Positions 14,903 through 63,883 of a DNA stretch of 64,000 bases are shown piece by piece. The notes under the pieces are model-generated. The model saw nothing but the letters and a program-made list of their open reading frames with translations, made no database searches and was not told the origin of the DNA. A program made the position numbers and the translations under genes. Position 1 is the stretch's first letter. Each line of letters begins with the position of its first letter. The DNA comes from Cyanidioschyzon merolae (lineage: Eukaryota), in the NCBI GenBank assembly GCA_000091205.1, contig AP006502.2; one strand, written 5' to 3'.

Positions 14903-15892
14903 TTTTTTACGCAGCTTGAGCGTCAAATCGAATACGGTATTACAGAACACCCCAAGGGTCGATAGCGTAAGTAACGCTTCGAACGGAATCGCTCGAGGTC
15001 GGATGCGTTCGAGAGATTTGCCCGCGCATCTGGCGTCGCGATCTCCGCGTTGGACCTCCGGAAGATTCCCTGCGAAGCGCTGCGATACCCGTTACATGTT
15101 CTTTTGCGTGGACGAAACGTTACCATTGATGCGGGGTGTCGGCCTGCAGGCTGCGTACGGGTAATCGAGAAGGCGTCTATCATGCAGCGCGCTGCGTTCA
15201 AGTTCCACGGTTCATAATTTCCTCTGTAATATTCAGGTCATTGCTTGCGTGCGATCGGGTGCAGAATACCTGCCTTGCTGCTCTCGACACAGTATCTATA
15301 CCGGTGGTGCGGTTGCAGCACGGAGACAGACGGGCTCGGCCGCACCACAGAGGGCGTCGGCTCGAGGAATGCTTCCATCGATAAGGAATCGGGACTCATG
15401 ATCATTCTGGGAGTCTGCACGCTGCCCAGATAGACGCACAGACTGCAACAGCGCGAAGCAAGTCGCTGCGTGATCAGTGCACCAGGGCGAAGCTCGGACG
15501 CATTTTACCCTGTGCTAGTCTTTGGATACACTGCGTTGCGCACAAGCCGCTCAGGTCTCGCCACAGCACCCGGCACTGCTGACGCACACAGAGCGCTCGT
15601 CCAGCAGACTCTAGTAGACTCATCCGGATCGCGAGGCCTTCCTCCTAGAAGGTAAACGTACGAGACCACGGAGATTGCTTCCCCTTTTCAACGTTTACCG
15701 TAGAGATGGAACGAAATTCGTACCGAGTAGCTGGTTCGTAGTCCGTTTCCCTTGCTTTTACCGATCGTGTTGCATCCTGAGAAGATGCGCTGTCGCCGCC
15801 GCCTTTAATGCCGCTGGGCGGATGTTTGAAGCGCATGGCTCGCTTCTGCAGTAATCGCTGTGACGAAAGCGTTGCTCTCCTGTATCTTTAGA

Positions 15893-19859: not shown

Positions 19860-20124
19860 CACAAGGGGACGCACCCAAAACCTGACGAATGCGCATGCGG
19901 TGTCGGAAAGGCAGCGCCTAGGACGTCCAGCAAGTGTTGACGGAGGCCGCCTGCTCGCTTGCAGCATCGCCTGCGTTCCCTGATCAACATACAGCTTTCT
20001 AAAGGACTCCTGGAGCAGGCGTCTGCAGTGCGGACGATACAGCCGGGTCTACAGTGGATGCTCCGAGGCGTGCTCCAAGCTTCGCTTGGGCATCTCTTGT
20101 TGGAACCTGGATCCTAGGATCCGT

Positions 20125-23100
20125 TTATGGTTGGAGAAGCTTGCGTAAGCGCTCCTTGTAGGCGTTGCATTCCATTTCCATTTCTGCGAGGCAGATAAGG
20201 AGCTCGTTGTGTTCTTCTCGAAGACGCCAAAGCTCCGCCTCCATGTCCGCAGCGCGCGGATCCACGTGGACTTGTGTGGCGTCCTGCTCTTGCTCCTGCG
20301 CTTTCACCACTGCCGCACCTGTTGCTGGTACTGCTGCTGATGCTGTTGCGAAAGCTGACGACGGCAACCAGGCGTGCTGCGAGCTGTCAGCACCGGATGC
20401 GTCCAGCTCGTTGACGTGCGTTGCTCGCCAGGGTTGCTGTGGTTGCGCCCGCTTGTCGTGGTGGTGCTGCTCGGCGAGTTGCTTGCGCAGCAACATGTTC
20501 TCATCGTGCACCATTTCGACTGCGCTGGCAAGTCGTGACTCGCGGGCAATGAGTTCCTCGATCTGTTTCTCTAGTTGCGCGATGAGGTCGCGCTGTGCAG
20601 CTGCACTGCTTGGCAACTCTGCCGCCGTCTCCATATGCTGGCTGTGGCTCCCTCTGGTATCGTCGGATGGATGCGCTGGCTCCAGTCGGGGCAGGTTCGT
20701 GTCGGTGAGCGCTTCTCGTGAAGATACCTGGTCGTCGCCGTTGTCGTCGTCGTCGTCGTCGTCGTCGTTGGGTGTCCCAGCAAGCACGCTGGCACGAGTT
20801 CCAGAGGCATTTGGATGCTGGGCGTGCTCCCATGCTGCCAAGCGTGCGCGTAGGGCGCTGATACAGGTCTGAAGACGAATGTTCTCTTGGCGAAGATCGC
20901 CGCTCGCCATGCGTTCTTTCACGAGAGAGCGCTGTAGCGCATCGACGGACGCTGGATCCGCTGCTGGGCCGTCCACATCATATGAAGCGCTGGAATCGTT
21001 TTCGGGACTTGCTCGGTACTGGGTTGTTTCTGGCGCTGATGCTTCGTCGAACGCGCGCTTGTGCGATGACGCAAGCGCAATCGTGCGCAGGTGTTCGATC
21101 TCTTCCTCGAGTTCCTGGAGGACTTGTTCATGGACCCGCATCATTTCACGCATACTGGCCTCGTGCCTAGATTCAAGTTCAGCTAACTGCCGTTCATAGG
21201 CATCGCGGACAAGTTGTACTTGATGGGTATGCTGCTCTCCAGCGAACGCTTTGTCAGCCCTGATCGCTGACTCGGCGTGATCATCATCATCATCATGATC
21301 GTCATCGCCATCGTTATCATCGGGGTCGTGCTCACCATGCATCGCTAGCACCGCAGGAACTGGCTGCGGTGAGCGCTCGTTGCGCCTCGCCTCCGAGTCT
21401 GCGACTTGTTCGGTACCCGTAGCACCAGCTGATAGGATGACAGCGCGGATTTGCGCCTGGAGGTTGTCAAACTCAAGTTCACATTCTTGCAATGTTGCCT
21501 GCTGATCAGTGAGCATATCAAGCTGCCGGTCGATTATGGCGAATTGCTTATCCCTCCAGAAGTGAACGGTCGACGCACATGCACTGACCTCGGATGCGGT
21601 CGCGTCTATCACTCCAGTGATCTGATCCGTAAGCGCTCGTCTCCATCGATGATGCTCCGCTTCGATCATATGGATGCGAGCACAGAGTGCTTCCTGTTGC
21701 TCCTCAGCGGTAGCCAGTCTCTGGTTGGTCTGGTGAAGCTCCGCTACGCACTCATCGTGCGCAAGCTGAGTCTCGGCGTGCTCCGCGAGTACTCGGTCCA
21801 GCTGCGATTGCAGTTCGTGGCTGATTTCCTCGTACTGCTTTTCCGCCGCCAGTGCTTCTTCACGCTCCAGGCCGAGGGCATTTTGCAAGTTCTGCACTTG
21901 ACTCTGTAGGTGCTGTACTTGGTCTTCTCGAGATGCAAGCGTTTCTTGCAAGAGTAAAACCTGAGCGCTAAGTTCCTCCAATTCAGCATCGCGCGTTTCG
22001 CTTTTGGATTCGAGCTCGCGATTTCTCGCTTCCAGTTCAGCAAGTTTCTCCCTATCCGCCTGGGCCTGTTCTAAAGAGATTTCCAACTCCCGTCGTTCAC
22101 TCTCAAGCTCTTCGCACCTTCGCGTGATCGTTCGCATGGAATCCTCCAGATCCTCGAGCCGGCGGCGGTCTCTGGTAGCCGCAGTCAACGCTTCTTCGTA
22201 TTCCTCGATGCGAGTCTGGTAGAGCTGCACCAGCTCCTCGAGTCTCTGTAGCTCTGCAGTTTGTCCGTCGCAGTCTGCATGCTGCTCTCTGAGCACAGTG
22301 AAGCTGTGGGAAACCTGCGCTAGATCTTCCTCCAGAGACCGGATACGCGAGTTCAACAACGCCTTCTCATGTACGTGAGCATCCAGTTCGGATTTCAGAT
22401 TTGTGCATGTTTCCTGAACACTTTCGAGACGACTTGCATGCTCCAGCAGAGAGTCTCGTTCGTCACAGACGTTTCGATATTGGGTTTCGAGTTCTGCGAG
22501 TTGCGTTTGCGCTGCTTGCTGGGCTGCTACCGCATGCCCGAGAGACGCGCATTCGCTCCGAAGCCTGTCTCGTTCGTCACAGACGTTTCGATATTGGGTT
22601 TCGAGTTCTGCGAGTTGCGTTTGCGCTGCTTGCTGGGCTGCTACCGCATGCCCGAGAGACGCGCATTCGCTCCGAAGCCTGTCTCGCTCGTCACAGACGC
22701 TTCGATACTGGGTTTCGAGTTCTGCGAGTTGCGTTTCAGACCGACGCAATTCCGCAAATGCATCCTCTAAACGCTGCCAGGATCCAACAGCATGCGAGAC
22801 AGGCCCTGCCTCGGCATACCCAGGCTTCAGATATCCAAACAGTTTCACCGCAGCGTCCTTGAGCGCACCCAGCGCAAGCCCTTTAATCAGTATCTCTTCC
22901 AGTATCAAAACCTCTACCCTGAACGCACCATAACCAGCAGCACGCTCCCGAGCGATTGCCTGATTCTTTCGCAAGGCATAAGCGAATAGTTCGGGAAGCG
23001 CCTCCAAGGGCGCAACACACGTCCCTACCTCTGGTGCAGTGCAGGCACCGACCGTCGTGCGCTGCAGCGTCATCTTCGCTTCTGCACTCCCGGACAGCAC

Positions 23101-26100
23101 CACAGATGCATCGCTGCCACGCGGGATATGTGCTGGCAGGATTGCGCTACACCGCCAGATGCGGGTACACAATGTATCCACGCGAGCCTCCATGGAGCGC
23201 AACGAGGCCAACACATGGACTAGGTCTCCATCGAAGCGATTGGACAGGTTGTGCAGGGCATCGAGGGCGATGCTGAGACGCCCACTTGCTGTCGTACCAG
23301 CAGCGAGCGCATTCGCCGGTGCAACCTCGCACCGCAAACTGTCCCCTGTTACCCAACGATCGATGAGTGCATCTGGAGGTTGATCAGCACTCGGCACACG
23401 CCCAGATACCACCATTGATGCGACTTGGGCTGCTCGTTCACCGCTCACACGAGACGCTGCCTCGAGCTCCGATTCACTGGGCTGCAGAGCGGCAAGCACA
23501 TCTGTTTGCGTGCCCGTCGAGGCCACGTCAGGTCGCTGGTGCTGGTCGTGCGTCGTCACCCGCTCTGCCGCTGAACGCAACGACGCCAGTTCCGTGCGCA
23601 GCGTATCACGTTCCTGTTCAAGTCGAATAACCTGTTCTTCAAGGATTTGCTGTGTTTCATAGGCATCTTCTTCGGATCGTTCCAACATTTTCTGCAGTGA
23701 AACAAGTTGGGTTTCGAGGTCCGCGATACGTTGCTCTCGGGAGCCTGCGTCGATAGCAGGGTCGAACGATGTATCTGCTCGCAGTACGGTAGCGAATCGA
23801 TCCTCGCTCGAAGAACGCAGAGGCGGTGCCTCACTCGCAGGATAGCGCGGACTTGCGGAGCCGCTGCCGCTAGCGTCTTCAGCGGCACTTTCGATCACTG
23901 CATCTGAGGGTGCCCCGTCAGCCCCAGTATTCGTACGATTTTGGGACTGGATGTAGTCCTCGAGCGCTCGCAACCGCTCTCGCAAGTGCGCATTCTCGAT
24001 TCGCACGAGTTCCGATGCGCTATCCTCGCCTCGCTCTGCATCCTCGAACTGGTTCAGGAGAATCATCAACCGCTCATTCTTCTGCCGTTCTTCGGCGAGT
24101 GCGCGTTCCAATATCCTGACATCAGTGATATCGCATGCTGACGACTCTGACGTCTCGTCGATGTACGCGTGCGCTTCGTTGCTTCGGAAATGATCCGCAG
24201 TCGTTCGCTCCGCGGGATCGCGGAAAACTCCACTATGCACGTGCTGTGCTGGCAGAACGCTCGACCCGTCATCGACGTGTGCACCAGCGTTCCTCAGTTG
24301 CTCGTTCTCTAGGGCGAGCGCTTCGCACGCTTTCGATATCGACTCCACATCGCGCTGGCGGCTCTGTAATGCCTGCTCCAGCGACGCCACCTGTTCCGTT
24401 AGTCGCCGTACCAAATCCTCGCGCTCAGTTAACTGGTCACGAACGAGCCTCAGTTCCTCCCTAAAACGCGACTCTGAGCCGCGCAGAAGCGAATCTGCAT
24501 AATCCTGACTCTCACGAAGGCTCCTGCGGAGCATTTCAACTTCTTCTTTGGATGCCAACAGCGCCTCGTCTTGTTTTCGAATCATTCTTTTGTATTCGTC
24601 GAGCTGAGCCACCATATCCTCGAGTTCTCGGATTCGCATCTGCATGGCTCGAATCTCATTTGATGATTTGTTTGTGGTGTCATCGAAGTGCCGGTTATCG
24701 ATAGATAACGAGCCGGGCGTCGCAAACTCCTTTGCGTTTCGAGGTGACGCACTCACCCCAACCTCAGCGGACTTGAGAGTCGAGCCCTGCATCTCGGTAT
24801 CAGAAGGCGGAACCTCTTGCTCCACATACTCGTGAAGAAGGCGTTTTTGGACGCAGTCATATACAGGCTCCATAATGGAGACAAGTTCTTGAGGAAAGAT
24901 ATACATATGTCCAAGTTCTTCAACTAGACCAGATCCTTGACGGGATTCGGTCGTCAAGACGCCTCTCGCGAAGCGTTGTTCCAGCAGCAGTCCAGGAGAG
25001 CCCGTGATCGCCGCTGCAAAGTATGCCGACGCTCGCACATCATCCAAGTAAGAAGCAAAGCGCATCAGTCCAATGCGTTTCCGCACAATACCGACCAGGG
25101 TTCTTGGCGATATCACCAGCGATTCCGCTTCTGCACACTCGAGTTCCATGCACTCGGCGATCGCCAGCGCTGCGAGGCCGCGGATATGCACGAAGAGCAT
25201 ACCTTCAGCACGGCTTCCCGACGATGAGACCAGGTCCATCAGCAGCGGCACATTCAGCGGTGTGGACAAGAACTTTTGGCGTGCTCTGTCTGAAACATAC
25301 AGCCAACAGCACAGGAGCAGCAACAGCGCTAGTCGCACTAATGGAGGACTGTTTTCGCGCACCGCACGCCCCAACGTACGCAGCAGCTTCATAAACAGAG
25401 GCTCACCTGCTGAGCATTCGCCCGTGAGCGCACCAGCACCTAGGACGACACGATATCTAGATACTGGCATCAGCAGCGGGTCCTGGTCGGCCACCGATGA
25501 ACCCTGAGCACAGCAGCGTACCATCCACGACGCCAACAGCGAGCACGCGTACAATACAGCAGCTGGGTCAGCTTCATCGGGCCAGCCGACAGCAACACCC
25601 AGCAGTTCAGAGACAACGCGCTGGAGCGCATGAGCAGTGCGTTCATCGATCGATTCGACGTCCTTCAATACTTCGGAAGCGTGCGGATTACTGGAGGCGG
25701 GATCGACGGCACCACAAGTCTGACGCTTGTCTGCCAACATCCAGGTGAACCAGCACAAGCCTGATTCGCTTTCCAGCCATACCATAGAAAGAAAGCAGAA
25801 CGCTGCTGCTCGCAGCTCCTGTGATGCGTGCTCCGTCATCATGTCCAACACGAATGCAAGAAAAAGCGTATGCACCTCTTTCCCGTTTGGTGCCCGGCTG
25901 GTACGTGCTTGGCTGGAATCATCGACTTCAGCGACAACAACCCAAAGTCCATGCAAGAATGATAGGGTCGCGACGTGATCTCGAGACAGGCGGCCTAAAG
26001 TCAGAAGACCTTGGACAACGACGGCGTCCGCGTTGCGAGCACTACAAATCAAGCGCGCGATGCTCTCTGTAACACCGTAATGGAGACAAAGTGCTCGAGT

Positions 26101-27489
26101 CCGTGGTTCCTTGTTCGTAGACTCGGCGCGCGACAAGTGATCGACTAAACCAATCGTCAAAATCAGGTTGTCCACTTGCACGGGTCGCAGTGCTTTCGCT
26201 GGATGATCAGCCAGGAACAAGAGCGGACAGAGCTTTGGGATGCAACCAGCCTCGGCGAAGAGCGTCGCGATCGCCGGATCACCATCCAGCAAAATATCCA
26301 TAAAAATCAGACAGTCTCGCGTGACCAAGTCCATGACGTCTGACGTGGACGCCAACACCATCGGTACATGTTGTTGCTGTCGTAGACTCTCGTCGGATGC
26401 AGATGTTCTCGCTAGCGACTCTGACTGCGGGCGGCCGGATGCTGGAAAGCCATCCGTATCATCTGTTTCTGAGTTATCGTCGGCATCGCCGTTTTCAGCA
26501 GGTGCGTATCTCCGAGATATCTGAACCTCATCGCTCTGCTCATCGACATGGACACTGACTTCCTCATAGCGTGCCTTGTCGATCATTTCGAACAAAAGTT
26601 CGAAAATATTTTCAAAAGCAAGTATTCTCTGGATTTCCCCGCTGTTGCGCGAGAGCTCCATGACGAGACGGAGGCCGTAGGTTCGTACCACCTCGCGCGG
26701 GTCCCGCAGTAAATCCATCATTCGCGAGACTCCTCGCGGGCAGCGAAGAACGGCTTTCTGTAATGGTGGCAGGGCATGCCTCGCGATATGCGTCAGCAAG
26801 TCGGACACCTGAAGCCGAACGGAGTAGTCACCGTCTGCGAGCAAGTCGAGCAGGCACGGTACAAGACCCAGTCCCGCTCGCTCGGAAGCGGTGACGGGTG
26901 GACTGGCGGCACCGAGCATCATAGACACAGCGGTGCGTATCGTGGACGCTGTGTCGGCACTCCACTTCCGCCAAATGTCTTCGTTTCGGTGCAACGGCGC
27001 AACGGCTTCCTTCGATTGGCAGCTGGTATTGCTTCGACGTCGCACGAGCGAACGCCTCTCTGAAGAGGCGGCCTGCGTGCTGTCCTCGAGCGAGCCCGCA
27101 AGACTCACGGTCGGCGCACAGAGAAGCAGTTGTAGCAAAGCGAGCGTACTTTGGATAAGTTCAGACTCCGTCCTGTCCTGCTCGAGGATAGCTCCCAGAA
27201 GAGGCACGCCCTTCGTTACCAACTCTTCCCGGAGGCTCAGCGCGACCCGCAGCGCTTCTGAGACCTCGTCACAGGCATCAGCATCAGCCTGCTCTAAGAG
27301 CTCGGCGACCTTATCGTCTGCCGCAGTCACCCGTCGGAGCAGGACCTCGACACACTGGAGACGTTCAGAGGGAAACCGCCCACAATGCAGCCGGTGTATA
27401 ATCAGGTCGAGCGCTTCTGTAACACCAGAGGTGGCCGGATTACGGTCAGCTCCAGCAACGTAGCGCGCTGCCTTGGTGATCAAGTTCAT
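20125..27489 (-). CDS. USO1: USO1/p115-like vesicle-tethering golgin of 2454 aa. An N-terminal armadillo-like head is followed by a very long coiled coil with poly-Asp tracts and three perfect 38-aa repeats.
   Basis: The N-terminus ...LGAILEQDRTESELIQSTLALLQLLL parallels the p115 head motif LQTDRSDSEIIGYALDTLYNI. The C-terminal two thirds is heptad-rich (LAELETQYRNVCDERDRLRSE...). DDDDDDDDD tracts are encoded by (GTC)n around 20742-20767 and 21283-21300. The ATG at 27487-27489 was verified. Confidence 0.65.
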   Translation of the reverse strand: MNLITKAARYVAGADRNPATSGVTEALDLIIHRLHCGRFPSERLQCVEVLLRRVTAADDKVAELLEQADADACDEVSEALRVALSLREELVTKGVPLLGAILEQDRTESELIQSTLALLQLLLCAPTVSLAGSLEDSTQAASSERRSLVRRRSNTSCQSKEAVAPLHRNEDIWRKWSADTASTIRTAVSMMLGAASPPVTASERAGLGLVPCLLDLLADGDYSVRLQVSDLLTHIARHALPPLQKAVLRCPRGVSRMMDLLRDPREVVRTYGLRLVMELSRNSGEIQRILAFENIFELLFEMIDKARYEEVSVHVDEQSDEVQISRRYAPAENGDADDNSETDDTDGFPASGRPQSESLARTSASDESLRQQQHVPMVLASTSDVMDLVTRDCLIFMDILLDGDPAIATLFAEAGCIPKLCPLLFLADHPAKALRPVQVDNLILTIGLVDHLSRAESTNKEPRTRALCLHYGVTESIARLICSARNADAVVVQGLLTLGRLSRDHVATLSFLHGLWVVVAEVDDSSQARTSRAPNGKEVHTLFLAFVLDMMTEHASQELRAAAFCFLSMVWLESESGLCWFTWMLADKRQTCGAVDPASSNPHASEVLKDVESIDERTAHALQRVVSELLGVAVGWPDEADPAAVLYACSLLASWMVRCCAQGSSVADQDPLLMPVSRYRVVLGAGALTGECSAGEPLFMKLLRTLGRAVRENSPPLVRLALLLLLCCWLYVSDRARQKFLSTPLNVPLLMDLVSSSGSRAEGMLFVHIRGLAALAIAECMELECAEAESLVISPRTLVGIVRKRIGLMRFASYLDDVRASAYFAAAITGSPGLLLEQRFARGVLTTESRQGSGLVEELGHMYIFPQELVSIMEPVYDCVQKRLLHEYVEQEVPPSDTEMQGSTLKSAEVGVSASPRNAKEFATPGSLSIDNRHFDDTTNKSSNEIRAMQMRIRELEDMVAQLDEYKRMIRKQDEALLASKEEVEMLRRSLRESQDYADSLLRGSESRFREELRLVRDQLTEREDLVRRLTEQVASLEQALQSRQRDVESISKACEALALENEQLRNAGAHVDDGSSVLPAQHVHSGVFRDPAERTTADHFRSNEAHAYIDETSESSACDITDVRILERALAEERQKNERLMILLNQFEDAERGEDSASELVRIENAHLRERLRALEDYIQSQNRTNTGADGAPSDAVIESAAEDASGSGSASPRYPASEAPPLRSSSEDRFATVLRADTSFDPAIDAGSREQRIADLETQLVSLQKMLERSEEDAYETQQILEEQVIRLEQERDTLRTELASLRSAAERVTTHDQHQRPDVASTGTQTDVLAALQPSESELEAASRVSGERAAQVASMVVSGRVPSADQPPDALIDRWVTGDSLRCEVAPANALAAGTTASGRLSIALDALHNLSNRFDGDLVHVLASLRSMEARVDTLCTRIWRCSAILPAHIPRGSDASVVLSGSAEAKMTLQRTTVGACTAPEVGTCVAPLEALPELFAYALRKNQAIARERAAGYGAFRVEVLILEEILIKGLALGALKDAAVKLFGYLKPGYAEAGPVSHAVGSWQRLEDAFAELRRSETQLAELETQYRSVCDERDRLRSECASLGHAVAAQQAAQTQLAELETQYRNVCDERDRLRSECASLGHAVAAQQAAQTQLAELETQYRNVCDERDSLLEHASRLESVQETCTNLKSELDAHVHEKALLNSRIRSLEEDLAQVSHSFTVLREQHADCDGQTAELQRLEELVQLYQTRIEEYEEALTAATRDRRRLEDLEDSMRTITRRCEELESERRELEISLEQAQADREKLAELEARNRELESKSETRDAELEELSAQVLLLQETLASREDQVQHLQSQVQNLQNALGLEREEALAAEKQYEEISHELQSQLDRVLAEHAETQLAHDECVAELHQTNQRLATAEEQQEALCARIHMIEAEHHRWRRALTDQITGVIDATASEVSACASTVHFWRDKQFAIIDRQLDMLTDQQATLQECELEFDNLQAQIRAVILSAGATGTEQVADSEARRNERSPQPVPAVLAMHGEHDPDDNDGDDDHDDDDDHAESAIRADKAFAGEQHTHQVQLVRDAYERQLAELESRHEASMREMMRVHEQVLQELEEEIEHLRTIALASSHKRAFDEASAPETTQYRASPENDSSASYDVDGPAADPASVDALQRSLVKERMASGDLRQENIRLQTCISALRARLAAWEHAQHPNASGTRASVLAGTPNDDDDDDDDNGDDQVSSREALTDTNLPRLEPAHPSDDTRGSHSQHMETAAELPSSAAAQRDLIAQLEKQIEELIARESRLASAVEMVHDENMLLRKQLAEQHHHDKRAQPQQPWRATHVNELDASGADSSQHAWLPSSAFATASAAVPATGAAVVKAQEQEQDATQVHVDPRAADMEAELWRLREEHNELLICLAEMEMECNAYKERLRKLLQP
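22453..22795. repeat. Three tandem copies of a 114-bp coding repeat (38 aa, QTQLAELETQYRNVCDERDRLRSECASLGHAVAAQQAA) inside the golgin coiled coil.
   Basis: gtctcgttcgtcacagacgtttcgatattgggtttcgagttctgcgagttgcg... recurs at 22453, 22567 and 22681 with near-perfect identity. Confidence 0.9.
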
Positions 27490-36281: not shown

Positions 36282-37544
36282 GACTGCGCTGCAAAAGCGG
36301 TATGTTCGTAGTTACATAGACCCAAGAGGAAAGACGTAGAGCTGGTGCAATGTGCGCCCGCGCCATGCCAGCGCTGTGAAACATTCGCATCTGGAGATGT
36401 GCTGGTATGGGGCGCGCTTACTATCACCCGGTGCTGCGCTGAACGGGATCACGTCGGGACGACACACGCTCCGGCACGCTTCGAGTGTTCGTCGTTGTTT
36501 CCAGTTGGACCTGGTCGTGTCTCGCCACGTACGAAATCTCTGCTCTTTTGAGGGATGCCCGCCGGACGCGACGGCAACTCGTTCTTCGAGGCGTCGCCTC
36601 GTTGGCGCTGCCTCCAGCGTGTTACGCCCAAGCTCTGTTTGGTGTTGCTCAGGTGACTGGGCCAGTGGCGTCAGTCTGAGCACTGTATTCTGTTGCCACG
36701 GTAAGCAACGTGTGTATATGTTTGTTTATGTACAGGGTGCAGAGCAGCGCGTTGCGGGATACCGTCCTGCCCTGGCTTGTTGCTGCTGGTAAGGTGCTGT
36801 GCGCTCTCTGGGCGCACGGTGCTCATTTGTCATAGGTTCTTCAGGGATTTGTTTTGCATCCATATGAGCTGGTCCTTTTGCTACGGTTGCACGTAGCGTA
36901 GAGAGCTACAGGTCCGCTCCCGGGGCACTACAGGCGCTGCCAACCAAAAAACATGTGCTCGCGGGTACCAGGAGCACGAATATGTTCGTGACGCTCCGAG
37001 GCTCTACTTCGCTCCGCGAAAAACTGGAAACGCTTTTGCGTTCTACAGCTTTCGCCTACGCTGAATACGGAATTCTTTATTGCTGACGGACCTGCGAAGT
37101 TACCTAGCTCCCGCGTATGCCCAAACTGTCGCCTACAACCTGGGCAGCACGCGCAGCTCCACATGCGTCAAGCGCTCGCAGTGCGGAACAGGATCCGCAG
37201 CTCGGGCACGAAGTGAGCAGCAACGGTATCTGCCCTGTATCGAAAAGGACGGTGAGTTGCTGCATCTTCTCGAACCAGAACAGAATTGATTGATGCGCGC
37301 GCCCAGTCATTCGATGAACGATCCTCAGGTGGTCCGTAGCATTCACATCATGGGCTGGGCATTTCAACGAAGCACCTTCAAAACCGAGAGCCTGGTGCAT
37401 GCCTGCATGCGGGGAGTTCCGATGGATACGCAGGGCCACGTTCGCATCTGTCGAGGCTGGACAGACGCCCACATTGATGGTCTCATCCGCGAATCGCATT
37501 GCCTGCATGGTGCCTGGAACGGCGTCCTGTGCCGGCCGGGGTTC

Positions 37545-38154
37545 CTATTCGGCTAAGACGATCGTACATACCGACTTGTCATTACCAGAGCGCATGCGGA
37601 GTTGCTTCCGTATCCGGGTATCAAAGCAGCCTGTTCTTTGCGTTAAGGGCTCGGACAATGCCCAGCGAAACATTGAATGTCCCACGACGGTAGAGTGTAT
37701 AAAGACACCCGCGCGCAGACGCTTCCCAACGTTTCTGGACCCACCGACTGCTATCGGTTTCAATTTCTCTTTGCAAACTTGGAGCTTGAGAGGATGTCCC
37801 GCAAAGTTGGCTGGTACCAGCTCCCCGGGTTTCGTTTTCAGCACCGCACATCGTCGGATGCCGTTGACGTGTCGGTTCACGAACTGCATGCGTTTATTGC
37901 ATCTGATGGAACTCACCATTGCAAGGATTCCTAGAACTAGCGCCCTCTGTGCCACTACAGCCTTGTCATCGTCCGGTCGGGCAAACACCTTTTCTTGTCT
38001 GTCTCTCATCGTCATCTTCTTCCTCGTCACGTGCTTATCTTCGCTCGATGGTCGGCGAGATGAGGATTTTTTCGTTTTTTCGGCAGCCGGTGGCGGCGGT
38101 CCTCATGGTTCCCAACTGTCATGTCCATACGTTTCCCACGTCTTTTATATTTGA
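37545..38154 (-). mobile_element. Relic fragment (copy c) of the TnpB/Fanzor-like element, with a degenerate RuvC-III region and 3-prime module, lying just 3-prime of the RPS5 gene.
   Basis: Minus ORF 37545..38030 contains CNKRMQFVNRHVNGIRRCAVLKTKP, a decayed version of VNRD-NAA-NI-RCAVL. Its DNA aligns to copy a (positions 150-420), and an MCGAENETRGAG peptide in frame 37621..37851 parallels MCGAEDETRGAG in copy a. No intact domains remain. Confidence 0.45.
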
Positions 38155-43289: not shown

Positions 43290-45206
43290 TCAAACTTTAT
43301 ACAGCAAATCCATGTACGAAAGCAACAGGTCTGATACGACACCGCGCGCTGGCATGGTCCCGCCTAGCCCATAAATAGGCGCCATGCCTTCGGTTTTTCC
43401 GGTTCGGTTGGAACGGTCGAGTTCTAGATTGGACTTGACGCAGTCGCTGAGATCGCTGAGGAAGCGTTCGATGACACCTGGTGCACAGTGCCGCAGTGTC
43501 AAGCAGATGTGAATACAAGGTGGGCGATGCAGTCCATTCAGCGACCAGCCGCGATCACTCATCGCGTCCAGAACCCTGTAAATATTGAGCGTACTCGGGT
43601 CGGCAGCTGCCAACGCGATCACCCAAAGCGGAGCACCGAGGATGCGCAGGTCCGGAATACGCGCCCTGATGCCGGTTTTGAGTGCATGTGCAGCCCGAAA
43701 GATGGCGTCCGTCGCATGCATGTAGCCGTCCTCGCCCATGCGAAGCATAGAGGCCCAGCAGGCAGCAATGAGACCTCCCGGTCGACTCCCTGCGAACGTT
43801 GGCGAATAATAAAGACCGCCACTCCAATCCGTGAGGGTGAAAAATTGATAGCGACGCCACTCTGGAGTAGCGTACAGGATAACACTGGTACCTTTGGCGG
43901 CGTATCCGTACTTGTGCGTGTCCACAGATATCGAGGTTACTCCTGGGACGCGAAAATCGATGCAAGGAACCTGCAGGTCTCGTAGATGCGGGGCATCCGG
44001 TCGCAACTTTTGCAGCATTTCCAGCCATGGCAAAACAAATCCACCGAGGCAGGCATCCACGTGGAATCCGACTCGTCGCTTCTGTGCGATCTCTGCGAGG
44101 TCCTCGATCGAATCAATGACACCATGTGGGAACTGAGGCGCTGAGCCCACAATCAAAACGGTATTGCGGTTCACGAGTTTGCGCACGTGCTCCACCTTGA
44201 CTCGGAAAGTTTCCGGATTTACGGCGGCGATTCGCAAGCGCAGGTTGAAATATTGAGCCGCCTTGTAGAAGGCCGCATGGGCCGTGCTAGGTATAATGAT
44301 CTCTGGACGTGTGATGCGTCGCTCTGCACGGCCCCAGTCACGGTACGTTTTGCATGCAAGGAGGATGCTCTCGGTACCGCCGGAAGTGACCACACCGCAG
44401 GCTTGTGGTCCCCCGTGCAGCATGCTCGCCGTCATCCGCACAATCTCCGCCTCAAACTTGATGCACGAAGGCCACACATCAGCATGGAGAGGGTTCAGAT
44501 GCGTTGTCCGTGCATACACGTTCGATAGGAACTCGGCGTGCGCTCGATCCCCCGAGTAAACTGCGCCACTGACAAAGCCTTGCTCCCATTTAGGTGCCTC
44601 GCATTCTATCATTCGATCGAGGTCGGCGAGAATCTGTGTTGGCGCTCGACCCTCTGCGGGAAGACGATCAAAAGTCGGAACAATTCCCCTGTAGGGATGA
44701 ACGACAGCGTCCATGGGTTCAAGCGACTTGGCGTAGGCTGATCGAAGTCGCTGGGCGAGAGTCGGCAGCCAGCGCGTTGCCTGACGGTAGAGGAAGGAAG
44801 CCATTCGCTCGGGAATCCAGGGAAGGAGACGCTCCAAAAGGTCATTCAAGCGTGTTTTCCAGCTTATTTGTGACTCAGATAAGGAGTGAACACTGTTCTC
44901 AACCGAGGCAGTCGCCATAACACTACGAGCTGCGGCTCCAGTACCTACGTGCGAAGGCGCAGCGTCTGGAGTGCACGCTTCACCAAGCGCAGAACCCGAA
45001 CAAGAGCATTCGCTCGCAGCTATTTGCCAGCCGTTGTTCGTCACTGCAGGTGCCTGCGTGTTCCAGTTGAGTCGCGTGCCTGTGGCGTTCGTGCTGGTGG
45101 GCGTCTCGGTACCCTGCTCTGACCGCGCGGCTGCCGAAGGCGACCCCTCGGGCCCGGAATCCTCGCAGGATACACGCCGAGCTTCCACCGCGAACTCCTC
45201 AGTCAT
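43290..45206 (-). CDS. SGPL1: Sphingosine-1-phosphate lyase, a PLP-dependent group II decarboxylase-fold enzyme.
   Basis: Motifs SGGTESILLACKTYRDWGR, GFHVDACLGGFVLPW, SISVDTHKYGYAAKGTSVILY and an N-terminal TM-like segment match the SPL/Dpl1 family; the K in THKYGYA is the PLP lysine. The ATG at 45204-45206 was verified. Confidence 0.85.
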   Translation of the reverse strand: MTEEFAVEARRVSCEDSGPEGSPSAAARSEQGTETPTSTNATGTRLNWNTQAPAVTNNGWQIAASECSCSGSALGEACTPDAAPSHVGTGAAARSVMATASVENSVHSLSESQISWKTRLNDLLERLLPWIPERMASFLYRQATRWLPTLAQRLRSAYAKSLEPMDAVVHPYRGIVPTFDRLPAEGRAPTQILADLDRMIECEAPKWEQGFVSGAVYSGDRAHAEFLSNVYARTTHLNPLHADVWPSCIKFEAEIVRMTASMLHGGPQACGVVTSGGTESILLACKTYRDWGRAERRITRPEIIIPSTAHAAFYKAAQYFNLRLRIAAVNPETFRVKVEHVRKLVNRNTVLIVGSAPQFPHGVIDSIEDLAEIAQKRRVGFHVDACLGGFVLPWLEMLQKLRPDAPHLRDLQVPCIDFRVPGVTSISVDTHKYGYAAKGTSVILYATPEWRRYQFFTLTDWSGGLYYSPTFAGSRPGGLIAACWASMLRMGEDGYMHATDAIFRAAHALKTGIRARIPDLRILGAPLWVIALAAADPSTLNIYRVLDAMSDRGWSLNGLHRPPCIHICLTLRHCAPGVIERFLSDLSDCVKSNLELDRSNRTGKTEGMAPIYGLGGTMPARGVVSDLLLSYMDLLYKV

Positions 45207-45493
45207 TTTCCGCGGACAGTTCCGTTACACCTCCTAGAAAAGAAGGCAATACCAAACTACGTTGAACAGACGGCAGCCGCGCACACCTGTTCGTTTTTGT
45301 TTCCAGTAGCAGCACGTTTCCATGGACCATGGATCCCAGATTGCGGGGTGGATGGATATTGTCTTTCGGGAAAGCGTCCATCGTGATGCATCCTGCCTTA
45401 TCGTTGCATTCCTCGTGATTCCTCTCTGATATACTGGTCGTTGCGTATGTTGTATGGTGCGCCATACCTACTTTGTACACCCCGCACAAGCGT

Positions 45494-46651
45494 TTAAACT
45501 ACTGGAGCGGATGCTGCAAGGCATGCACGGTCACTCGATAGAGTATACGAATCGACCAGTATATCCGAGAAGAAGCATGGGCTATGGGACTCGGAAGTAG
45601 ATGGAATGATGGACGTCTTCCCGCGCATGGCCACACCAAACGCCGTTCGAAAGTCGAACGACGCCAACGGTGTACAGTAGTGGCGGGAAAACCGCGCCCT
45701 AGACAAAACGTCTCCAACTGACGTCCAGACGCCTCCCGCCTTTTTGGACCGGTCACCTACTACTGATTCCAATTCTTTCTCATATAAATCGACTTTGAGT
45801 GATTGTCCAATAAAGTTCTCTCTTGTCAGCTCTGGAGGTCTTTCCTCCAGCACCGCACATTTCCTCATATTGATTGCGGCATTAAAGTCTCGGTTCACGA
45901 GCTCCATCCGTTTCTTGCCATCACTGGTTGTACTTACTAATGCGAGTAGTCGACGAACTTTCGCCCTCCATTCCATTTGCTCTTCCTTCAGCGGTCCGTA
46001 CTTTGCTATTTCCTCAGGGCTCCTCTGGCACTTTTCCATCTCGGCCCTTTGAAGTGTGCACCCCAGTTCATGGTGTGTATACGATGTCCGAAACTCATCT
46101 ATTGGTATCGTAACAGAACGCCCTGCGCACTCCTTGTACACCCTCGTCGTTGGAGCTGGCGTAGTTCCTTTTTGTGTCTTCCAGCACCCTGCTCTGTACG
46201 CTAACACGAGCCTTTGAGTCTTGTCCTCTTTGAGGGCACTCAACTCATTGAAACAATTCGCGAATGCCCGCGGCTTCCCACAATACAAATTCATTCGTAA
46301 ACGTGCCCACCGGGGCTTGGTATACTCCTTCCACAGCGTATCCCAATGCGCCATGCGAACTTCCATGAATTTCCGAAAGGCTTCAAAGTCCGCTCCTCGG
46401 TTAGTCACGTCGCTCAAAGCTTCCAGGTGATCTTTCATTCCTGAATTCCACGTCTCAATTTTCTTTCTCGTATTCATGATTCCCGATTCTCGATAGTATC
46501 TCGCTCTCGAGAACCTCAAAAGACGCATGTGTTTCTGACGTAAGTTACCATCAGCACCATCTTCCGCACGCTTGGGTACAGCGATGGTTACGATATTCGT
46601 ATTCCCAGGGTCCGCGCCAACGACAAAGTCGTTATCTTGCACTTTCTGCAT
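45494..46651 (-). pseudogene. RuvC-domain portion of the copy-B TnpB/Fanzor-like gene; its ORF reads through the ancestral stop into the 3-prime module.
   Basis: Copy C terminates 9 codons after RCAVV (TAG at 60732-34), whereas copy B has CAG at the aligned position and continues more than 100 codons into sequence that is conserved non-coding in the other copies. Confidence 0.55.
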
Positions 46652-47130
46652 CGCAGGATCCGCCTTCTTGTTTTCTTAATGCTTCGTCGCGTCAACGACA
46701 AGGTCGTTATCTTGCACCTCCTGCATCACAGGATCCGCCGTCTTCTCATCTTCATCCTTCGTAATGTCAACAACAAGGTCGTTATTCTCTACCTCCTGAG
46801 TCGCAGGATCCTCTTCTTTGTTTTCTTCATGCTTCGCCGCGCCAATGATAAAGCCGTTATCCTGCACCTCCTGCGTCGCAGGATCCGCCGTCTTCTCATC
46901 TTCATCCTTCGTAATGTCAACAACAAGGTCGTTATTCTCTACCTCCTGAGTCGCAGGATCCTCTTCTTTGTTTTCTTCATGCTTCGCCGCGCCAATGATA
47001 AAGCCGTTATCCTGCACCTCCTGCGTCGCAGGATCCGCCGTCTTCTCATCTTCATCCTTCGTAATGTCAACGACAAAGTCGTTATTCTCTACCTCCTGAG
47101 TCGCAGGATCCTCCTCTTTGTTTTCTTCAT
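46620..47130. repeat. Perfect 150-bp tandem array (two 75-bp half-units; about 3.4 units) inside copy B. It encodes [25 protein letters not shown] / [25 protein letters not shown] and duplicates the segment just N-terminal to RuvC-I.
   Basis: tcttctcatcttcatccttcgtaatgtcaac recurs at exactly 46741, 46891 and 47041. The repeat peptide [17 protein letters not shown] parallels the native [20 protein letters not shown] that opens the RuvC-I block. Copy C has only one unit. Confidence 0.9.
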
Positions 47131-49822
47131 GCTTCGTCACGGGTGCAGCCGAGGGTGGAACTGGACGATCTTTCTTCAACCGCCGATAGTGTACACACAT
47201 GGCTACGCCATCGGTTTCGATCATCCCAGTGAATACCTTTTGTTTGCTGACTTTGAGACGTTTGAAATCGAAGATACTCTTCCAGTACGTCTCCCGGTTT
47301 TCACGGATGAAGTCCTCCCTGCTAACATTGAACCCCGGACTGATCTCCTTCATGATGCCGTAAAGGACGCCTGAATCGATACTCACAAAATACTACTTGA
47401 TGTTGCACAACGGAACCACGTTTAACTGCTTCCCCATTAGGAAAGCCTTCCGTCTCTCCCACTCTTCATTTGTCTCTTCACTCAGCTTCATCTCCGCCTT
47501 GCGTTCGAGTTCACGATTCAGAAACACAAAATAGCGCAGGATGAGGCGATAGTACCTTTCCTTATCTTTTTTTAACTCTGACACCTTTTCTGTTGGATTC
47601 GGTAGCCCCATGACTGCGCCGTGCTCTTGCATAGCCGCACGGATTACAGAAGCTTCATTCGTGCTCTCGTTTGACGCCTTCTTCTCGAAAAATTCGACCT
47701 CATCTTCATGCCTGCGATCTTTCGTGATGGCATCGATAATCGCCCATATCCCCTTGCGTGAGATTCCCGGGTACAGCGCAAACACGGCGCGTATCATGAA
47801 ACGTTCGAGGTTCATCGTCAAATGGTTCTTCAGGTTCGTCAGGTACTTGATGGCCCCGTATTCGTAAATATCCGCGTCACCTGTATACCGAGTACCATCG
47901 AAGCTGTAAAAGAGATGTTTTTCGTGCAGGACGTGCACCCGCTCATTTCCCCTCCGCGCTTCCGCTGTACCAATCGTCATGTGACGAATAAAGGTCTCGT
48001 CGGAAACTCGTTCGGAAGCTCGACTGTTTCCATGTGCGTCATTTCGCGATACATCTCCCCGCCAAATGCACTAGTCCTGACGACACCTTTATTATAGTCA
48101 TGGAGTTCGGCTCAACACGGTTTCGGATGGACTCTCGTAACTTTTTCTTGCACGGAACCTTGATCTGTCCAAGAAGACAGGCTTTCATAACCAGTTCGTT
48201 GTAGTGTGGTCTTTCTTGCAGCCATCGACGTAGGACCTCCCTCCTTTCGGTCCTTCTTCTCTTCCTTTTCTTCTGGACTCGGTACTGTTTTTTGTTTTTT
48301 CTGGCAGCCAGCGACACTTGGCCTCCAGGATCGTCGACTTGGTTTTTGATAACATTTCCTTTTTTATTTTTCTTGAAAAAGAGCGCTCTTTGAACGCTTC
48401 TCCTATAAACCGCGAAAAAGGACTTGAATACACTTATTTGAGGGTTGAAACACGATTCAACTGAAAACTGCAGTTTGCTACGACTTCAACGGAAATAGAA
48501 CTTTTACTTTACTGCTGGATCATAAAGGTTTGGATCGTGTCTCCCTTCAACGGCGACAAGCGCGTCATATCTCATGACTGCCAGATCTCCCAGGTGCGCG
48601 TCTCAACCGCGCTATTTAGAAAAAAAGGAAAGAGACTCACGATTCACGAGCAACGAGCTATCGATTTCTTTCCCCGTCTACATGAAACATTAAAAGGGGG
48701 AAATTTTTTCCGCATGTCCGAAAGTTTAACGTCTAGGCGGAAAGTCGCGCGGGCCGAACGAGTCTGCCAGGCTCGTGCTTCATGCCCCTCCCAGCGGCGG
48801 GTTCTTGAAAGAAACCTGTGCTACTCGTCCACAAAGCAATTCATTCTGGGACTAGGGACAGTTAAGCTGCATCTGGGCATCGCCCTGGTCGCAGTGGACT
48901 CCTAGGATATCGATTCGCGCTGTCGCAGGCAGTAGGTCTGCCAGCGTAGCTTGCAGGCTCCCAGAATGATCATGAACCTCGACCCTGATTCAGCCGTAGC
49001 ATTCCTCGAGTCGATGCGCTCTCTTGTATGGCATGTCGGTTCTCTCTGTCCATGCTGCGACCGCGCCGCCGCTATAGGCGCTATCGCGGACGCTCGCGAC
49101 GGGCAGTCGGCACACGGTCGAACTTGAAAATAATCGGTACCTCCGAGGGAACGTATGGGAAGCGGAACTTGCGAGGAGGGCGCGGAACGATGGAAACCCC
49201 ACAACGCGCGGTTACCGAGCACGCTCTCAGGGATTGCTGCTCTGTGGGTCAACGTTTCGTCCAACGAAAAGGAATCGAGTGTGTCCTTCACGCGCGCCGC
49301 TAGGCAGGTACACTCAACTCGTTCAGTGGTAAAGACGTTTTTCCGACGGTTCACTCGATATATCACAACGCATTGCGAAAATGAGTTGTCACTGACGTGT
49401 CCGTGGACCAGCCAGTTCATGTGCCGTATATGCGCTTTTTCTCAACAGATAGGTGAACGACCTTCCAGGTCCGTGTGGTGCTGTCGAAAGCGTTCCCGTC
49501 GAAACGGTACACATATGATCAAAGCGGGCCTGTTTGGAGGCATTCTAGATGCAGCTCTGGATATTGATCGTAGCTATGTAAATAGTATCCTTGCGAGAGA
49601 GCAGCCTGGCACCGCTGCCGCAACGGCAACCTTTGAATCTTGAACACTCATTCCAGTTTTAGATCAAATTTGACACCCGTCACTGGACGGCCATCGACGC
49701 CTGTCTCAGACGCTTCATCACCGCCGCCACCGACGCCGCTGGGTACCACCGAGCGCTGTACGCTTCAGCGCTCATCTGTGTCTACGACAAGGCGAGCTGC
49801 ACCGGCGCTCGGAACTCGTTCC

Positions 49823-60479: not shown

Positions 60480-62940
60480 GTTCGGGGTGATTGTTTCCGA
60501 ATTGAGGGTTGCGATTTTTATGACGACGACGCCAGCGACAGCAAATGTCTTCCAAAGAAAACGTTGCTGCCAGCGGCGCACAGTAGTGGCGAGTGACCCG
60601 CCCTAGACAAGACGTCTCTAGCTGATGTGCAGACGCCTCCCGGTCTTAATGGACCGGCCACGTACTACGGCTTCCAATTTCTTCTCATATTGATCTACTC
60701 TGCAGGATTGTCAAACAAAGTTCCCTCTTGTCTACCCAGGAGGTCTCGGCTCCACCACCGCACATCTCCGTATATTGATAGCGGCATTCAAGTCTCGATC
60801 CACGAATTCCATACATTTTTTGCCGTCGTTGGTTGAACGTACTAATGCAACTAGTCCTCGAACGTTCGCCCTCCTTTCCATACGCTCCTCCGTCAGCGTT
60901 CTGTACATTTTGACATCCTCGGGACTCCTATGGCACTTTTCCATCTCGAATCTCTGGAGAGTACACACCAGCTCATAGTGTGTATACGATGTTCGGAACT
61001 CATATACAGGTATCGTAACGAGACGCCGTGCGCACTGCTTGTCCACCCTCGTCGTTGGAGCTGGCGTAGTTCCTTTCTTCGACGCTCATCGCCCTGCTCC
61101 GTATGCTACTCTGAGCCTTTGACTTTCATCCTCCTTCAGGGTACTCAACTCATTGAAACAATTCGCGAACGCTCGCTGCTTCCCACAATACGAATTCATA
61201 TGCAGACGAGCCAACCGGGGATTCGTATACTCCTCCCACAGTACATCCCAATGAGCAATGCGAACTTCCATAAATTTCCGAAAAGATTTAAAGTCTGCTC
61301 CTCAGACGGTCACCTCGCCCAAAGCTTCCACGAGATCCTTCATTCCTGTGTACCAAGTCTCGATATTCTTCCCCGCATTCGTTATACGAGATTTTCGATA
61401 GTATGTCGCTCGCGAGAACCTCAAAAGACGCGTATATTTCTGGTGCAAGTTGCCGTTGGAGCAATCTTCCGCATGCTTGGGTACAGCGATGGTTATGATA
61501 TTCGTGTTCTAGGAGTTACTACCAACGACAAAGACGTTCACGTGGGGATTACACGTCCCCTGGCCGTTCTACTTCTTTCCGTGCATCGGTATGGGCGATA
61601 ACGAAGACGGGATAGGACGAAGTACATGCAACCGCTAATAATGTACACATCTGTATACGCCATCGCTATCGATGGTCCCCGTGAGTACTTTTTTTGACCG
61701 GTTTGGGGCGTTTGGAATCGAAATAGTTCTCCCAGCAGGTGTTCCGGTCTTCGCCGGTTACCTCTTTGTTGCTTCCATCGAGCTCAGGACAGATCTCTAT
61801 CATGAAGGCAGAGAGAACTCTGGGGTCGATATTCACAAAACATGACTTGAACTCGCATAACCGGCCGACAATGAAACGCTTCTGGAGAAGACTTCAATGT
61901 CGTTTCTTCCGTCCGTGATTTTTGCCACACTCAAATCCATATCGGCCTCGCGTTCGGGTTCTCGGTCCAAAAAAATGAAGTACGGCAGGATAAAAGGGAT
62001 AAATCTCTCTTCGTCTGCCTTTGATCATACCTGACAGTTTCTCCCTTGAGATGACAAGCCCCGAGACTGAACGAAGTTCTAAACTAGCGGCGCGGATAGC
62101 AGAAGCAGAATTCGTCGACTTGCATGATGTGCTCTTGTCGACGAATATGATCTCCTGTTCATGCTAGCGAGCGTTCTTGAGAATATCGATGATTGGCCGC
62201 ATCCCTTCGCGAAAAAGGCTCGCGTACAGCACAAAGCGGGCGCCTATCGTGAAAAAGACGAAAGATAAGATTTTTTGGTTCCTCGCATTCGTGAGGCAAC
62301 TCAATGCCCTGTATTCGTATCTTTTTACGTCACACCGATGTCCAGCACCATTGACGCGGTAATTGTCGTAAATTGTGAGGGGGGCATCAGCCAGCTCATT
62401 GCTCTTTGATGCTTCCCCATTGCGAGGACTCAGGTGGTTGAAGAAAGTCTTTTTGAAAAATAATTCCGGAAATATCACTTTTGCGATATGCGTTACGTCG
62501 TGATGCAGCTCGATCTGCAAATGCGTCAGTCCAAAAGAAAAGTTACGACCAGACCTGGAGTGCGAATCTACGCGGTCTCTGATAGCGTCTAGGAGCATTC
62601 AGTCGTACGGATAATTGATATGCTGGAGACGACAGGATCACACAACCATATCGTCGTACGGACATCACTCTTGCAGCCTTCGTGGTAGCGCCTCCACATC
62701 TAACTTCTTCTTTTTTCCCTACTCCTCGGAAATAGCTACTACGTCTCGTTTTTTTTCCAATATTCGGCATCCCCGGTCATCCACAACACAACACGTCCAG
62801 TTCCATAAGTGAAAGATGTTTTGGGAGAAAAACTCATCGGACGCTTGTGCGTAGAGCGGCGAATATCGGTTGAATACATTTACTTGAAGATTGAAATACC
62901 ATTGAAGCCAAAACAATACTTTGCTAGGATCCGATCGCAA
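60480..62940 (-). mobile_element. Degenerate TnpB/Fanzor-like element, copy C (subtelomeric), homologous to copy B along its length but fragmented by frameshifts and carrying a single repeat unit.
   Basis: ORF 60732..61046 reads EFRTSYTHYELVCTLQRFEMEKCHRSPED...MEFVDRDLNAAINIRRCAVVEPRPPG. ORF 61086..61271 (MEVRIAHWDVLWEEYTNPRLARLHMNSYCGKQRAFANCFNELSTLKED) matches the copy-B peptide MEVRMAHWDTLWKEYTKPRWARLRMNLYCGKPRAFANCFNELSALKED. ORF 62164..62598 matches the copy-B N-terminal segment. DNA homology with copy B runs from about 60540 to 62935. Confidence 0.55.
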
Positions 62941-63883
62941 GTACAAGAGGCCCCGATAAAGCAGTCGCTCAAGAAGAGGTCATTACCGCGTTTCTATTGA
63001 TCGGCGAGGCGCACGTCGGGTGACGAGACGGCCAGAATTCGCGATGCGTTACTATGGCACACGACATAGAAAATGCCAACTAGTAAATGATATACACAAA
63101 CGGGATAGCAAGTAATATCGCCACCAACCTGAAACCTTAAAAGGAAGAAGTTTTTGCGTATGGCCACACTGTTAGATTAAGCGGAAGGTCTGCGAGCCGC
63201 GAAACCCAACCGGCCAGTCCCCCGTGTGACCCTTCAGTGGCGGGTGATGCGCCGCACCTAACCACCCCAACCGAACGCATTTGATTGTGGAATCATGAGC
63301 GGGTATGCTGCATCAGAATCTCACTTTGGGCAAGGCGGACTTCCAATACAAAACTCCGCGCTATACCAGGCAGAAGAGCTGGAATTAGAGCTTGGAGGCT
63401 TCCAGAAATATAAATAGCACTGATTCCGTGTTGCATGAAACAAGCATCAACCGACGCGCTCAGTAGTATGTGAAAGCTACTGTGCTCCCCAAGAGCATCA
63501 GCACCAGCGATGGAGAAACTTCGGAGGGTGCAGACGGCAGGCATCCGGCGCAGAATAAAAGCGTGAAACGACCAGCAAAGCCGAGAGTAAGTAAAAGCGA
63601 TGCAATGCACAGAGATTGTTCAGCACGATAAAGGATTTTACGAACCAAAAAGACGAAGCGGCGATCTCAGCCATCTGATCAGTGGAAAAATTCTGCAAAC
63701 CAGTAAAAGCAAAACGTCCGAAGTAAATTCCCGATGAATTTGGTATATAATCTATGTCGCGGTAACAGATGCGAAAAAGCCCAGATCGTGCCGCGAGAAG
63801 TGATACACTTGTGGGAAATGAAATAATACACGTCGCTATCAAAGATGCTTTCGCACTAAGATCATCAAACCTATGTGAAACTG

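Follow-up and report, generated by a model that had tools for sequence, protein, structure and literature searches.

A Fanzor1 pseudogene on a CMe-1A element upstream of the sphingosine-1-phosphate lyase gene of Cyanidioschyzon merolae

The Fanzor1 and Fanzor2 proteins were defined by Bao and Jurka (2013; Mobile DNA 4:12, PMC3627910), who described in the genome of the alga Cyanidioschyzon merolae one Fanzor1 family, CMe-1A, with about 150 copies, each about 80% identical to a 3,169-bp consensus that encodes a 734-aa protein (CMe-1) in a single exon. According to that study CMe-1A lacks terminal inverted repeats, its target duplications were left undetermined there, and its 5' 635 bp are nearly identical to a separate element, TE-N2_CMe. 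In the systems studied, the guide RNAs of Fanzor and TnpB proteins are encoded at the 3' end of the element (Saito et al., 2023; Jiang et al., 2023), and the Fanzor census of 2023 included red algae. Here we describe a minus-strand region in a 64,000-nucleotide stretch of C. merolae contig AP006502.2 (the window), which had been flagged from its letters alone as a near-complete TnpB/Fanzor-like element. The region has DNA identity to CMe-1A, the protein that it encodes has the homology and the fold of Fanzor1, and it carries inactivating lesions; very probably, a member of CMe-1A, the family of Fanzor1-bearing transposable elements in C. merolae, inserted here long ago, became fixed and has since been inactivated. 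The identification made in the sequence-only reading is right and not new, as the exact family, with its roughly 150 copies, had been published for this genome in 2013.

With the CMe-1A consensus DNA (supplementary file 2) and the CMe-1 protein sequence taken from the supplementary files of Bao and Jurka (2013), blastn and MAFFT alignments placed a copy at 45639–49265 on the minus strand, equivalent to consensus 1–3169 plus two nucleotides. By blastn, consensus 70–2190 matches 49194–47068 at 82.9% DNA identity and consensus 2122–3169 matches 46686–45641 at 87.7%, while the first 70 bp of the consensus align weakly and its position 1 is placed near 49265 by global alignment. The alignment covers 3.1 kb, non-coding parts included, and is not confined to a short common domain. 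The copy is about 3.6 kb long because of the expansion of a 75-bp repeat described below, and it has about 900 bp of 5' non-coding sequence, including a module at 48624–49265 (minus strand) that corresponds to the separate element TE-N2_CMe (consensus 1–636). It lies in the same genome as the described family, shares the TE-N2_CMe 5' module and the lack of terminal inverted repeats, and encodes a protein 79% identical to the CMe-1 open reading frame (ORF) at aligned codons; it differs in being inactivated and in having six extra repeat units. Six ORFs that flank the element at various places in the window match C. merolae 10D proteins exactly (BAM83514 to BAM83530, on a record of 1,621,617 bp). 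The element had been placed at 45494–48500; its true extent, from about 49265 to about 45639, reaches some 800 bp further upstream, and 'near-complete' holds for its length but not for its gene, which is a pseudogene.

The gene is what remains of a split-RuvC nuclease gene of the Fanzor/TnpB type, and the element that bears it is eukaryotic and multicopy. Its RuvC and degenerate nuclease (TNB) coding segment, at 45698–46651 on the minus strand, lies within the longest surviving ORF (385 aa, 45494–46651). The motifs noticed earlier in this frame (GADPG, IDEFRTSYTHHELGC and NRDFNAAINM) are present, and the three catalytic residues, D14 of GADPG (codon 46612–46610), E186 of DEFRTS (46096–46094) and D255 of NRDFNAA (45889–45887), are among the only residues of the C-terminal half that are invariant across an alignment of 75 sequences of the CMe-1 clade (alignment A2), so that the D/E/D triad called for by the original assignment is present. 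A search of a large protein collection with the 385-aa ORF found 213 unannotated, mostly metagenomic relatives, and a second protein search, seeded with an intact, 47%-identical relative (P0118), yielded 590–730-aa proteins at 33–64% identity. More than 100 apparently intact relatives of this kind (P0180–P0285; 590–730 aa, 33–64% identity) were observed on 2–5-kb contigs that come from many metagenome and read-archive assemblies, and the clade therefore reaches well beyond Cyanidioschyzon.

Searched on its own against Pfam, NCBIfam and PDB sequences, the 385-aa ORF had no meaningful match, and a shallow profile of 10 sequences had none against PDB. In contrast, the profile of the 75-sequence alignment against PDB sequences recovered PpFz1 of Parasitella (E=2.5e-18), SpuFz1 of Spizellomyces (E=9.2e-11) and GtFz1 of Guillardia (E=1.1e-3), and nothing beyond these three Fanzor1 proteins below E=1. 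A profile check of the original assignment thus came out empty for the single ORF and positive for the family. The catalytic motifs were aligned in all three matches alike, and in the HMMER alignment the motifs of the family pair with DPGR, DEFRTS and NRD of PpFz1 and SpuFz1. The Cas12f1-like TNB domain of Pfam (PF07282) was reached weakly by 6 of the 75 relatives. Separately, many relatives carry a precomputed match to PF26935.1, which a local Pfam-A scan of the same proteins did not reproduce. Jiang et al. (2023) describe for Fanzor a rearranged RuvC-II site, with Gly or Pro at the position of the canonical Glu and an alternative Glu downstream. The CMe-1 family has such a rearranged active site: the Gly of its AYG motif, present in 74 of 74 relatives, aligns to VMG of SpuFz1, and the Glu of DEFRTS lies 33 residues on. 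In the flagged copy this RuvC-II Gly is mutated to Arg.

The fold of the protein points the same way. An AlphaFold model of the RuvC segment of the flagged copy (pLDDT 86.4) was best matched by Fanzor1 structures: the top seven Foldseek matches were SpuFz, PpFz and GtFz entries, with SpuFz (9cez/8gkh) at E of about 1e-9, and Cas12 and ISDra2 TnpB followed. The N-terminal half of the flagged copy is frameshifted, and the whole architecture was tested on its closest near-intact relative, P0186, whose full-length model (pLDDT 81.9) can be superposed on SpuFz1 from end to end (TM 0.71 when normalised to SpuFz1; E=3e-16) and has Fanzor1 structures alone among its top seven Foldseek matches. As modelled for P0186, the predicted TnpB-like architecture, an N-terminal wedge/recognition half followed by a C-terminal RuvC/nuclease half, resembles that of the solved Fanzor1 proteins. 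The assignment to Fanzor/TnpB-type nucleases is therefore upheld along three independent lines, by the DNA alignment to CMe-1A, by the profile matches to solved Fanzor1 proteins and by the top seven Foldseek matches of both models.

Beside CMe-1A itself, one of the closest described systems is SpuFz1 (PDB 8GKH, 9CEU–9CEZ), an omega-RNA-guided DNA endonuclease that comes first in the structural comparisons with the RuvC segment and with the full-length relative alike. The DPG, DE[FY]xTS and NRD motifs of the two align and both have Gly at the canonical RuvC-II position; they differ in that sequence identity is only about 15% and in that the nuclease lobe of SpuFz1 carries a CCCC zinc finger, which the CMe-1 clade lacks. 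ISDra2 TnpB of the IS200/IS605 group (PDB 8H1J) shares the RuvC fold (Foldseek rank 9) and the expectation of a guide RNA at the 3' end of the transposon, but is a far weaker match (E=8e-4, TM 0.33) and is a bacterial protein with a canonical RuvC-II Glu and a TnpA partner, whereas the flagged element has no TnpA. Fanzor2, as represented by the mimivirus protein ApmFz2 (PDB 9B0L) and found on IS607-like elements, belongs to the same superfamily, but its Foldseek E was only 0.035 over 280 columns and there is no IS607 serine recombinase nearby.

These comparisons bear on the proposal that the motifs come from an unrelated repetitive family, a bacterial TnpB contaminant or a recent horizontal transfer and not from a eukaryotic Fanzor. 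The empty single-sequence searches of Pfam, NCBIfam and PDB would be expected if that were so, but the profile and fold matches are specific to Fanzor1, with Cas12, TnpB and Fanzor2 far weaker, the element has nuclear genes of C. merolae on either side and is free of TnpA, and about 150 diverged genomic copies have been reported (PMC3627910); we give this proposal practically no credence. An unrelated or bacterial origin is refuted by the Fanzor1-specific profile and Foldseek matches. As to membership among the bacterial TnpB proteins, the ORF of the flagged copy matched neither OrfB_IS605 nor OrfB_Zn_ribbon nor any other model in Pfam or NCBIfam, and no transposase ORF lies within the element or next to it.

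Codon-by-codon comparison with the 734-aa CMe-1 ORF showed that the flagged copy is a Fanzor1 pseudogene, running on the minus strand from a lost start codon at 48350 (ATC where the consensus has ATG) to a retained, now out-of-frame TAG at 45701–45699 (45699–48350 in all). Relative to the consensus ORF there are 1-bp deletions at codons 17, 98, 116 and 722 and a 1-bp insertion near 48248, and two premature stops, S320 to stop at 47395–47393 and a TAA at 46678–46676 that falls inside the expanded repeat. The long, mostly open minus-strand frame from 48433 to 45494 that first drew attention does exist (980 codons), but it is broken by seven internal stops, beginning at 48187, 48100, 48094, 48091, 48073, 47395 and 46678, and not by three; five of the seven cluster near the N-terminus. 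This single frame follows the true Fanzor reading from about 48006 to 45737 and nowhere else: four 1-bp indels put the part upstream of 48006 out of frame, and beyond 45737 a 1-bp deletion carries the frame past the real stop into non-coding DNA. The basic N-terminus that had been likened to a nuclear localization signal is accordingly an out-of-frame reading of purine-rich DNA, although the consensus protein is itself basic and KKRK-rich: its N-terminus contains GKKRKTVPSPEEQEKTKKQKREARRQR, and the 1-bp deletion at codon 17 of the flagged copy falls within this motif. Ten of 50 residues conserved in at least 90% of the relatives are altered in the flagged copy, among them the Gly noted above (G153R; Gly in 74 of 74 relatives). 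The flagged copy is unable to encode a Fanzor1 protein.

One way around this conclusion would be for the locus to be a still-functional Fanzor gene whose stops and frameshifts are spliced out or recoded. The frame is open over long stretches, and Jiang et al. (2023) report that Fanzor genes of other eukaryotes acquired introns. Against this, the family consensus has no introns and the flagged copy departs from it by single-base indels and point changes, its start codon is ATC, and ten of the 50 strongly conserved residues are substituted. Near-intact ORFs are also present in related strains, of 752 aa in P0186 and 722 aa at locus L005, and both read straight through the positions at which the flagged copy is damaged. 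A working gene of this kind is extremely unlikely, and rescue of the ORF by introns or recoding was rejected, given that comparison with intact relatives shows the damage to consist of point changes and 1-bp indels.

Only slightly less improbable, and still very unlikely, is that the 385-aa ORF (45494–46651) has been domesticated as a truncated, RuvC-only protein with a new host function. It starts with ATG, holds all three catalytic residues and has a 98%-identical counterpart, likewise of 385 aa, in related strains (P0001, a cluster of 13 members); yet 97–99% conservation among strains is expected from recent common ancestry alone, and the ORF lacks the whole N-terminal RNA- and DNA-binding half of the full-length model. 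Its ATG sits in the unstable tandem repeat, its last 70 or so residues are a frameshift-caused read-through of non-coding DNA, and it carries G153R together with nine other changes at conserved sites.

The repeat in question is a tandem array of a 75-bp (25-aa) unit at 46613–47138 on the minus strand, seven copies long by Tandem Repeats Finder, which lies in the ORF just before RuvC-I and adds 450 bp relative to the aligned consensus. In the AlphaFold model the corresponding stretch is disordered. The in-frame unit, just upstream of the RuvC-I Asp, varies in number like a minisatellite: the consensus has one, the flagged copy seven and other copies (L003, L005, L020, L023 and others) about one to six or more, as estimated from gaps between BLAST segments. 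The NDxVV lead-in strand is part of every unit, the DPG of none. The 46001–48000 interval of the window stands out strongly in strand composition, has a GC content of 0.49, a GC skew of -0.21 and an AT skew of -0.20, and corresponds to this purine-rich Fanzor repeat region.

Mismatches between the flagged copy and the consensus amount to 13.0%, 7.2% and 19.5% at codon positions 1, 2 and 3, and to 19.4% in the non-coding parts (chi-square p=1e-9), and most of the divergence therefore arose under selection on the protein, with decay coming later. A remark on long-lived coding capacity in PMC3627910 agrees with such a late decay, and according to its authors some copies still have an unbroken ORF of about 734 aa. 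Two metagenome contigs (loci L001 and L002) carry the same insertion with the same flanks and 97–99% protein identity, and the insertion therefore predates the divergence of these strains.

Eighty related loci were retrieved, corresponding to 37–45 distinct insertion sites, from metagenome contigs of related strains; the 3' ends of 39 copies were aligned (alignment A3) and the 3' boundary was refined with 37 distinct copies. A conserved 3'-terminal module at 45639–45870 on the minus strand comprises the last 45 or so codons, a 59-nt 3' non-coding tail and a terminal 10-bp hairpin (45641–45663). Similarity ends sharply after ...GGCG, and the next two bases are TT in 30 and 35 of the 37 copies, respectively; the published consensus thus appears to be 2 nt short, the end being ...GGCG plus TT. 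A bias to G and T continues beyond the end and fades by about +10. Most copies form the terminal hairpin, in one or the other of two registers. Folding of the last 26 nt gave -6 kcal/mol or below for 64% of copies and for 16% of control windows; the flagged copy has a perfect 10-bp stem (-13.4 kcal/mol). By analogy with the systems of Saito et al. (2023) and Jiang et al. (2023), this 3' module is the expected site of a Fanzor guide (omega) RNA scaffold.

The flanks of the copies are not random. Across the 37 distinct copies the ...GGCG is followed almost invariably by TT and then by a G/T-rich TTKGKTG (45638–45630 in the flagged copy), and a T-rich GATTTTKTTTC-like motif precedes consensus position 1 in seven distinct copies (49266–49276 in the flagged copy). 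They may point to a preferred target or a target-adjacent motif, or the ends of the consensus may be set slightly wrong.

All copies share their 3' end and differ in what lies at the other end. Depending on the copy, the Fanzor core (consensus about 646–3169) is preceded by one of at least four unrelated sequences, namely TE-N2 in direct orientation, TE-N2 inverted and two other shared modules, as seen at loci with variable 5' modules (L005, L010, L011, L016, L023, L026, L052, L055, L068, L069, L070 and L077). It may therefore be that TE-N2 and a 2.5-kb core were combined in the CMe-1A consensus as published. A Helitron was considered on account of the 3' hairpin and the variable 5' parts and was rejected on its termini: the element begins 5' CGATGAC... 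and ends ...GGCGTT 3' with the hairpin abutting the end, whereas Helitrons run 5'-TC...CTRR-3' with the hairpin 10–12 nt before the end. No similarity to Rep/helicase proteins was seen for the element.

Several observations weigh against this explanation of the locus. The relationship of the family to Fanzor1 is revealed only by profiles and folds, single sequences having failed to detect it. The element encodes no transposase and lacks terminal inverted repeats. The CCCC zinc finger, which SpuFz1 and ISDra2 TnpB have in common (Saito et al., 2023), was found with both Cys pairs in 0 of the 39 clade members in which both motifs could be located, and for that reason the nuclease lobe of the clade may behave differently. 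RNAalifold gave no consensus structure for the 39 3' ends; in three helices drawn by hand 78% of cells were paired, a level that column-shuffled controls also reached, and covariation was not significant. There was also no Rfam match in 45000–49600, and the 3' guide RNA accordingly stays a prediction. The lack of an Rfam match and the absence of tRNA genes anywhere in the window mean that no known RNA or tRNA-targeting explanation applies. RNA-guided cleavage by CMe-1 proteins is a prediction from homology.

With regard to the zinc finger, alignment A2 shows the CMe-1 clade to be without four cysteines between the catalytic Glu and the last Asp (window 46094–45887). SpuFz1, PpFz1 and TnpB all have the four-Cys finger, and most members of the clade keep a single Cys in GLLWC. 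The flagged copy reads DEFRTSYTHHELGC...LVSTTSDGKK at this site. The finger was not a criterion by which Bao and Jurka (2013) placed CMe-1 in Fanzor1.

If the family works as other Fanzor1 proteins (SpuFz1, GtFz1 and PpFz1) do, an intact CMe-1 protein of about 734 aa would enter the nucleus by way of its basic N-terminus, would associate with a guide RNA that is transcribed at the conserved 3' end of an element, with the guide portion reading into flanking DNA, and would cut matching DNA beside a short motif. Cutting would be carried out by the RuvC site formed by the D of GADPG, the relocated E of DEFRTS and the D of NRDFNAA. As has been proposed for TnpB, such cleavage may help the element to persist, or to spread by break-induced copying. 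The flagged copy would at most supply 3'-end RNA to protein made by intact copies elsewhere.

A bolder suggestion, which we consider unlikely, is that the CMe-1 clade forms a distinct, zinc-finger-less Fanzor1 branch that spreads without a transposase by nuclease-driven copying primed from the 3' end. Such copying would fit a conserved 3' terminus with a hairpin and several unrelated 5' modules on the same core; it would also fit the fact that both isolated fragments in the window, described next, are 3' pieces, and the biased flanks, in which the 5' GATTTTKTTTC might be a target-adjacent motif and the 3' TT and G/T-rich sequence a preferred target.

Four Fanzor-coding copies or fragments lie in the 64 kb, along with further element fragments. 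The three other family members that had been noticed in the window were all recovered, and all on the minus strand. A second near-full-length CMe-1A copy, more diverged (about 72% identical to the consensus), occupies 60550–63695, where blastn to consensus 108–3164, a 5' extension and tblastn define it. The other two were located by blastn and tblastn at 188–540 (consensus 2737–3092) and 37590–37955 (consensus about 2840–3087), and both are isolated, CMe-1-like, 3'-terminal pieces of the element; the latter lies antisense inside a 251-aa plus-strand ORF (37399–38154). A solo TE-N2_CMe-like element (consensus 5–636, 71%) was found by blastn on the plus strand at 15111–15758. Elsewhere in the window, the AT skew is -0.24 at 20001–22000, within a 2,454-aa ORF (20125–27489).

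The next gene downstream of the element, on the same strand, is a host gene for sphingosine-1-phosphate lyase (SPL; 43290–45206, minus strand; Pfam PF00282), as had been stated: by phmmer against PDB it matches the solved bacterial lyase 3MAD at E=1.2e-155 and human SPL (4Q6R) at E=2.8e-121. An exact look-up of this ORF gave no match, probably owing to a different annotated start. The 3' end of the element was, however, not in the 290 bp directly upstream of the lyase start codon as had been thought; it lies at about 45639–45641, 434 bp from the ATG at 45206. In between, sensitive blastn and a self inverted match revealed a palindrome at 45314–45623 made of two inverted fragments of the 5' head of the element, one arm matching consensus 11–212 on the plus strand (45314–45521) and the other consensus 60–178 on the minus strand (45623–45507). 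The arrangement is kept in the orthologous metagenome loci L001 and L002. At another locus (L069), the 3' end of an element is followed head-to-tail by a TE-N2 head within about 20–60 bp. The interval directly upstream of SPL is thus transposon-derived.

As Bao and Jurka had already published the family in 2013, with copy number, consensus and assignment to Fanzor1, the locus carries little weight as a discovery, and its use is mainly as annotation. The gene models of C. merolae 10D leave these loci unlabelled, and no NCBI-sourced protein is among the close matches listed for the ORF. We therefore suggest that the stretch be annotated as a CMe-1A pseudogene and the DNA upstream of SPL as transposon-derived. 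The lack of the zinc finger, the 3' hairpin, the 5' modules, the minisatellite in the ORF and the flank biases, none of which is established, could guide a test of a native C. merolae Fanzor. Should the clade indeed prove to be a zinc-finger-less branch copied from its 3' end, its intact members, from an acidophile that lives at 42–45 °C, would be candidate heat-tolerant RNA-guided nucleases in a genetically tractable alga.

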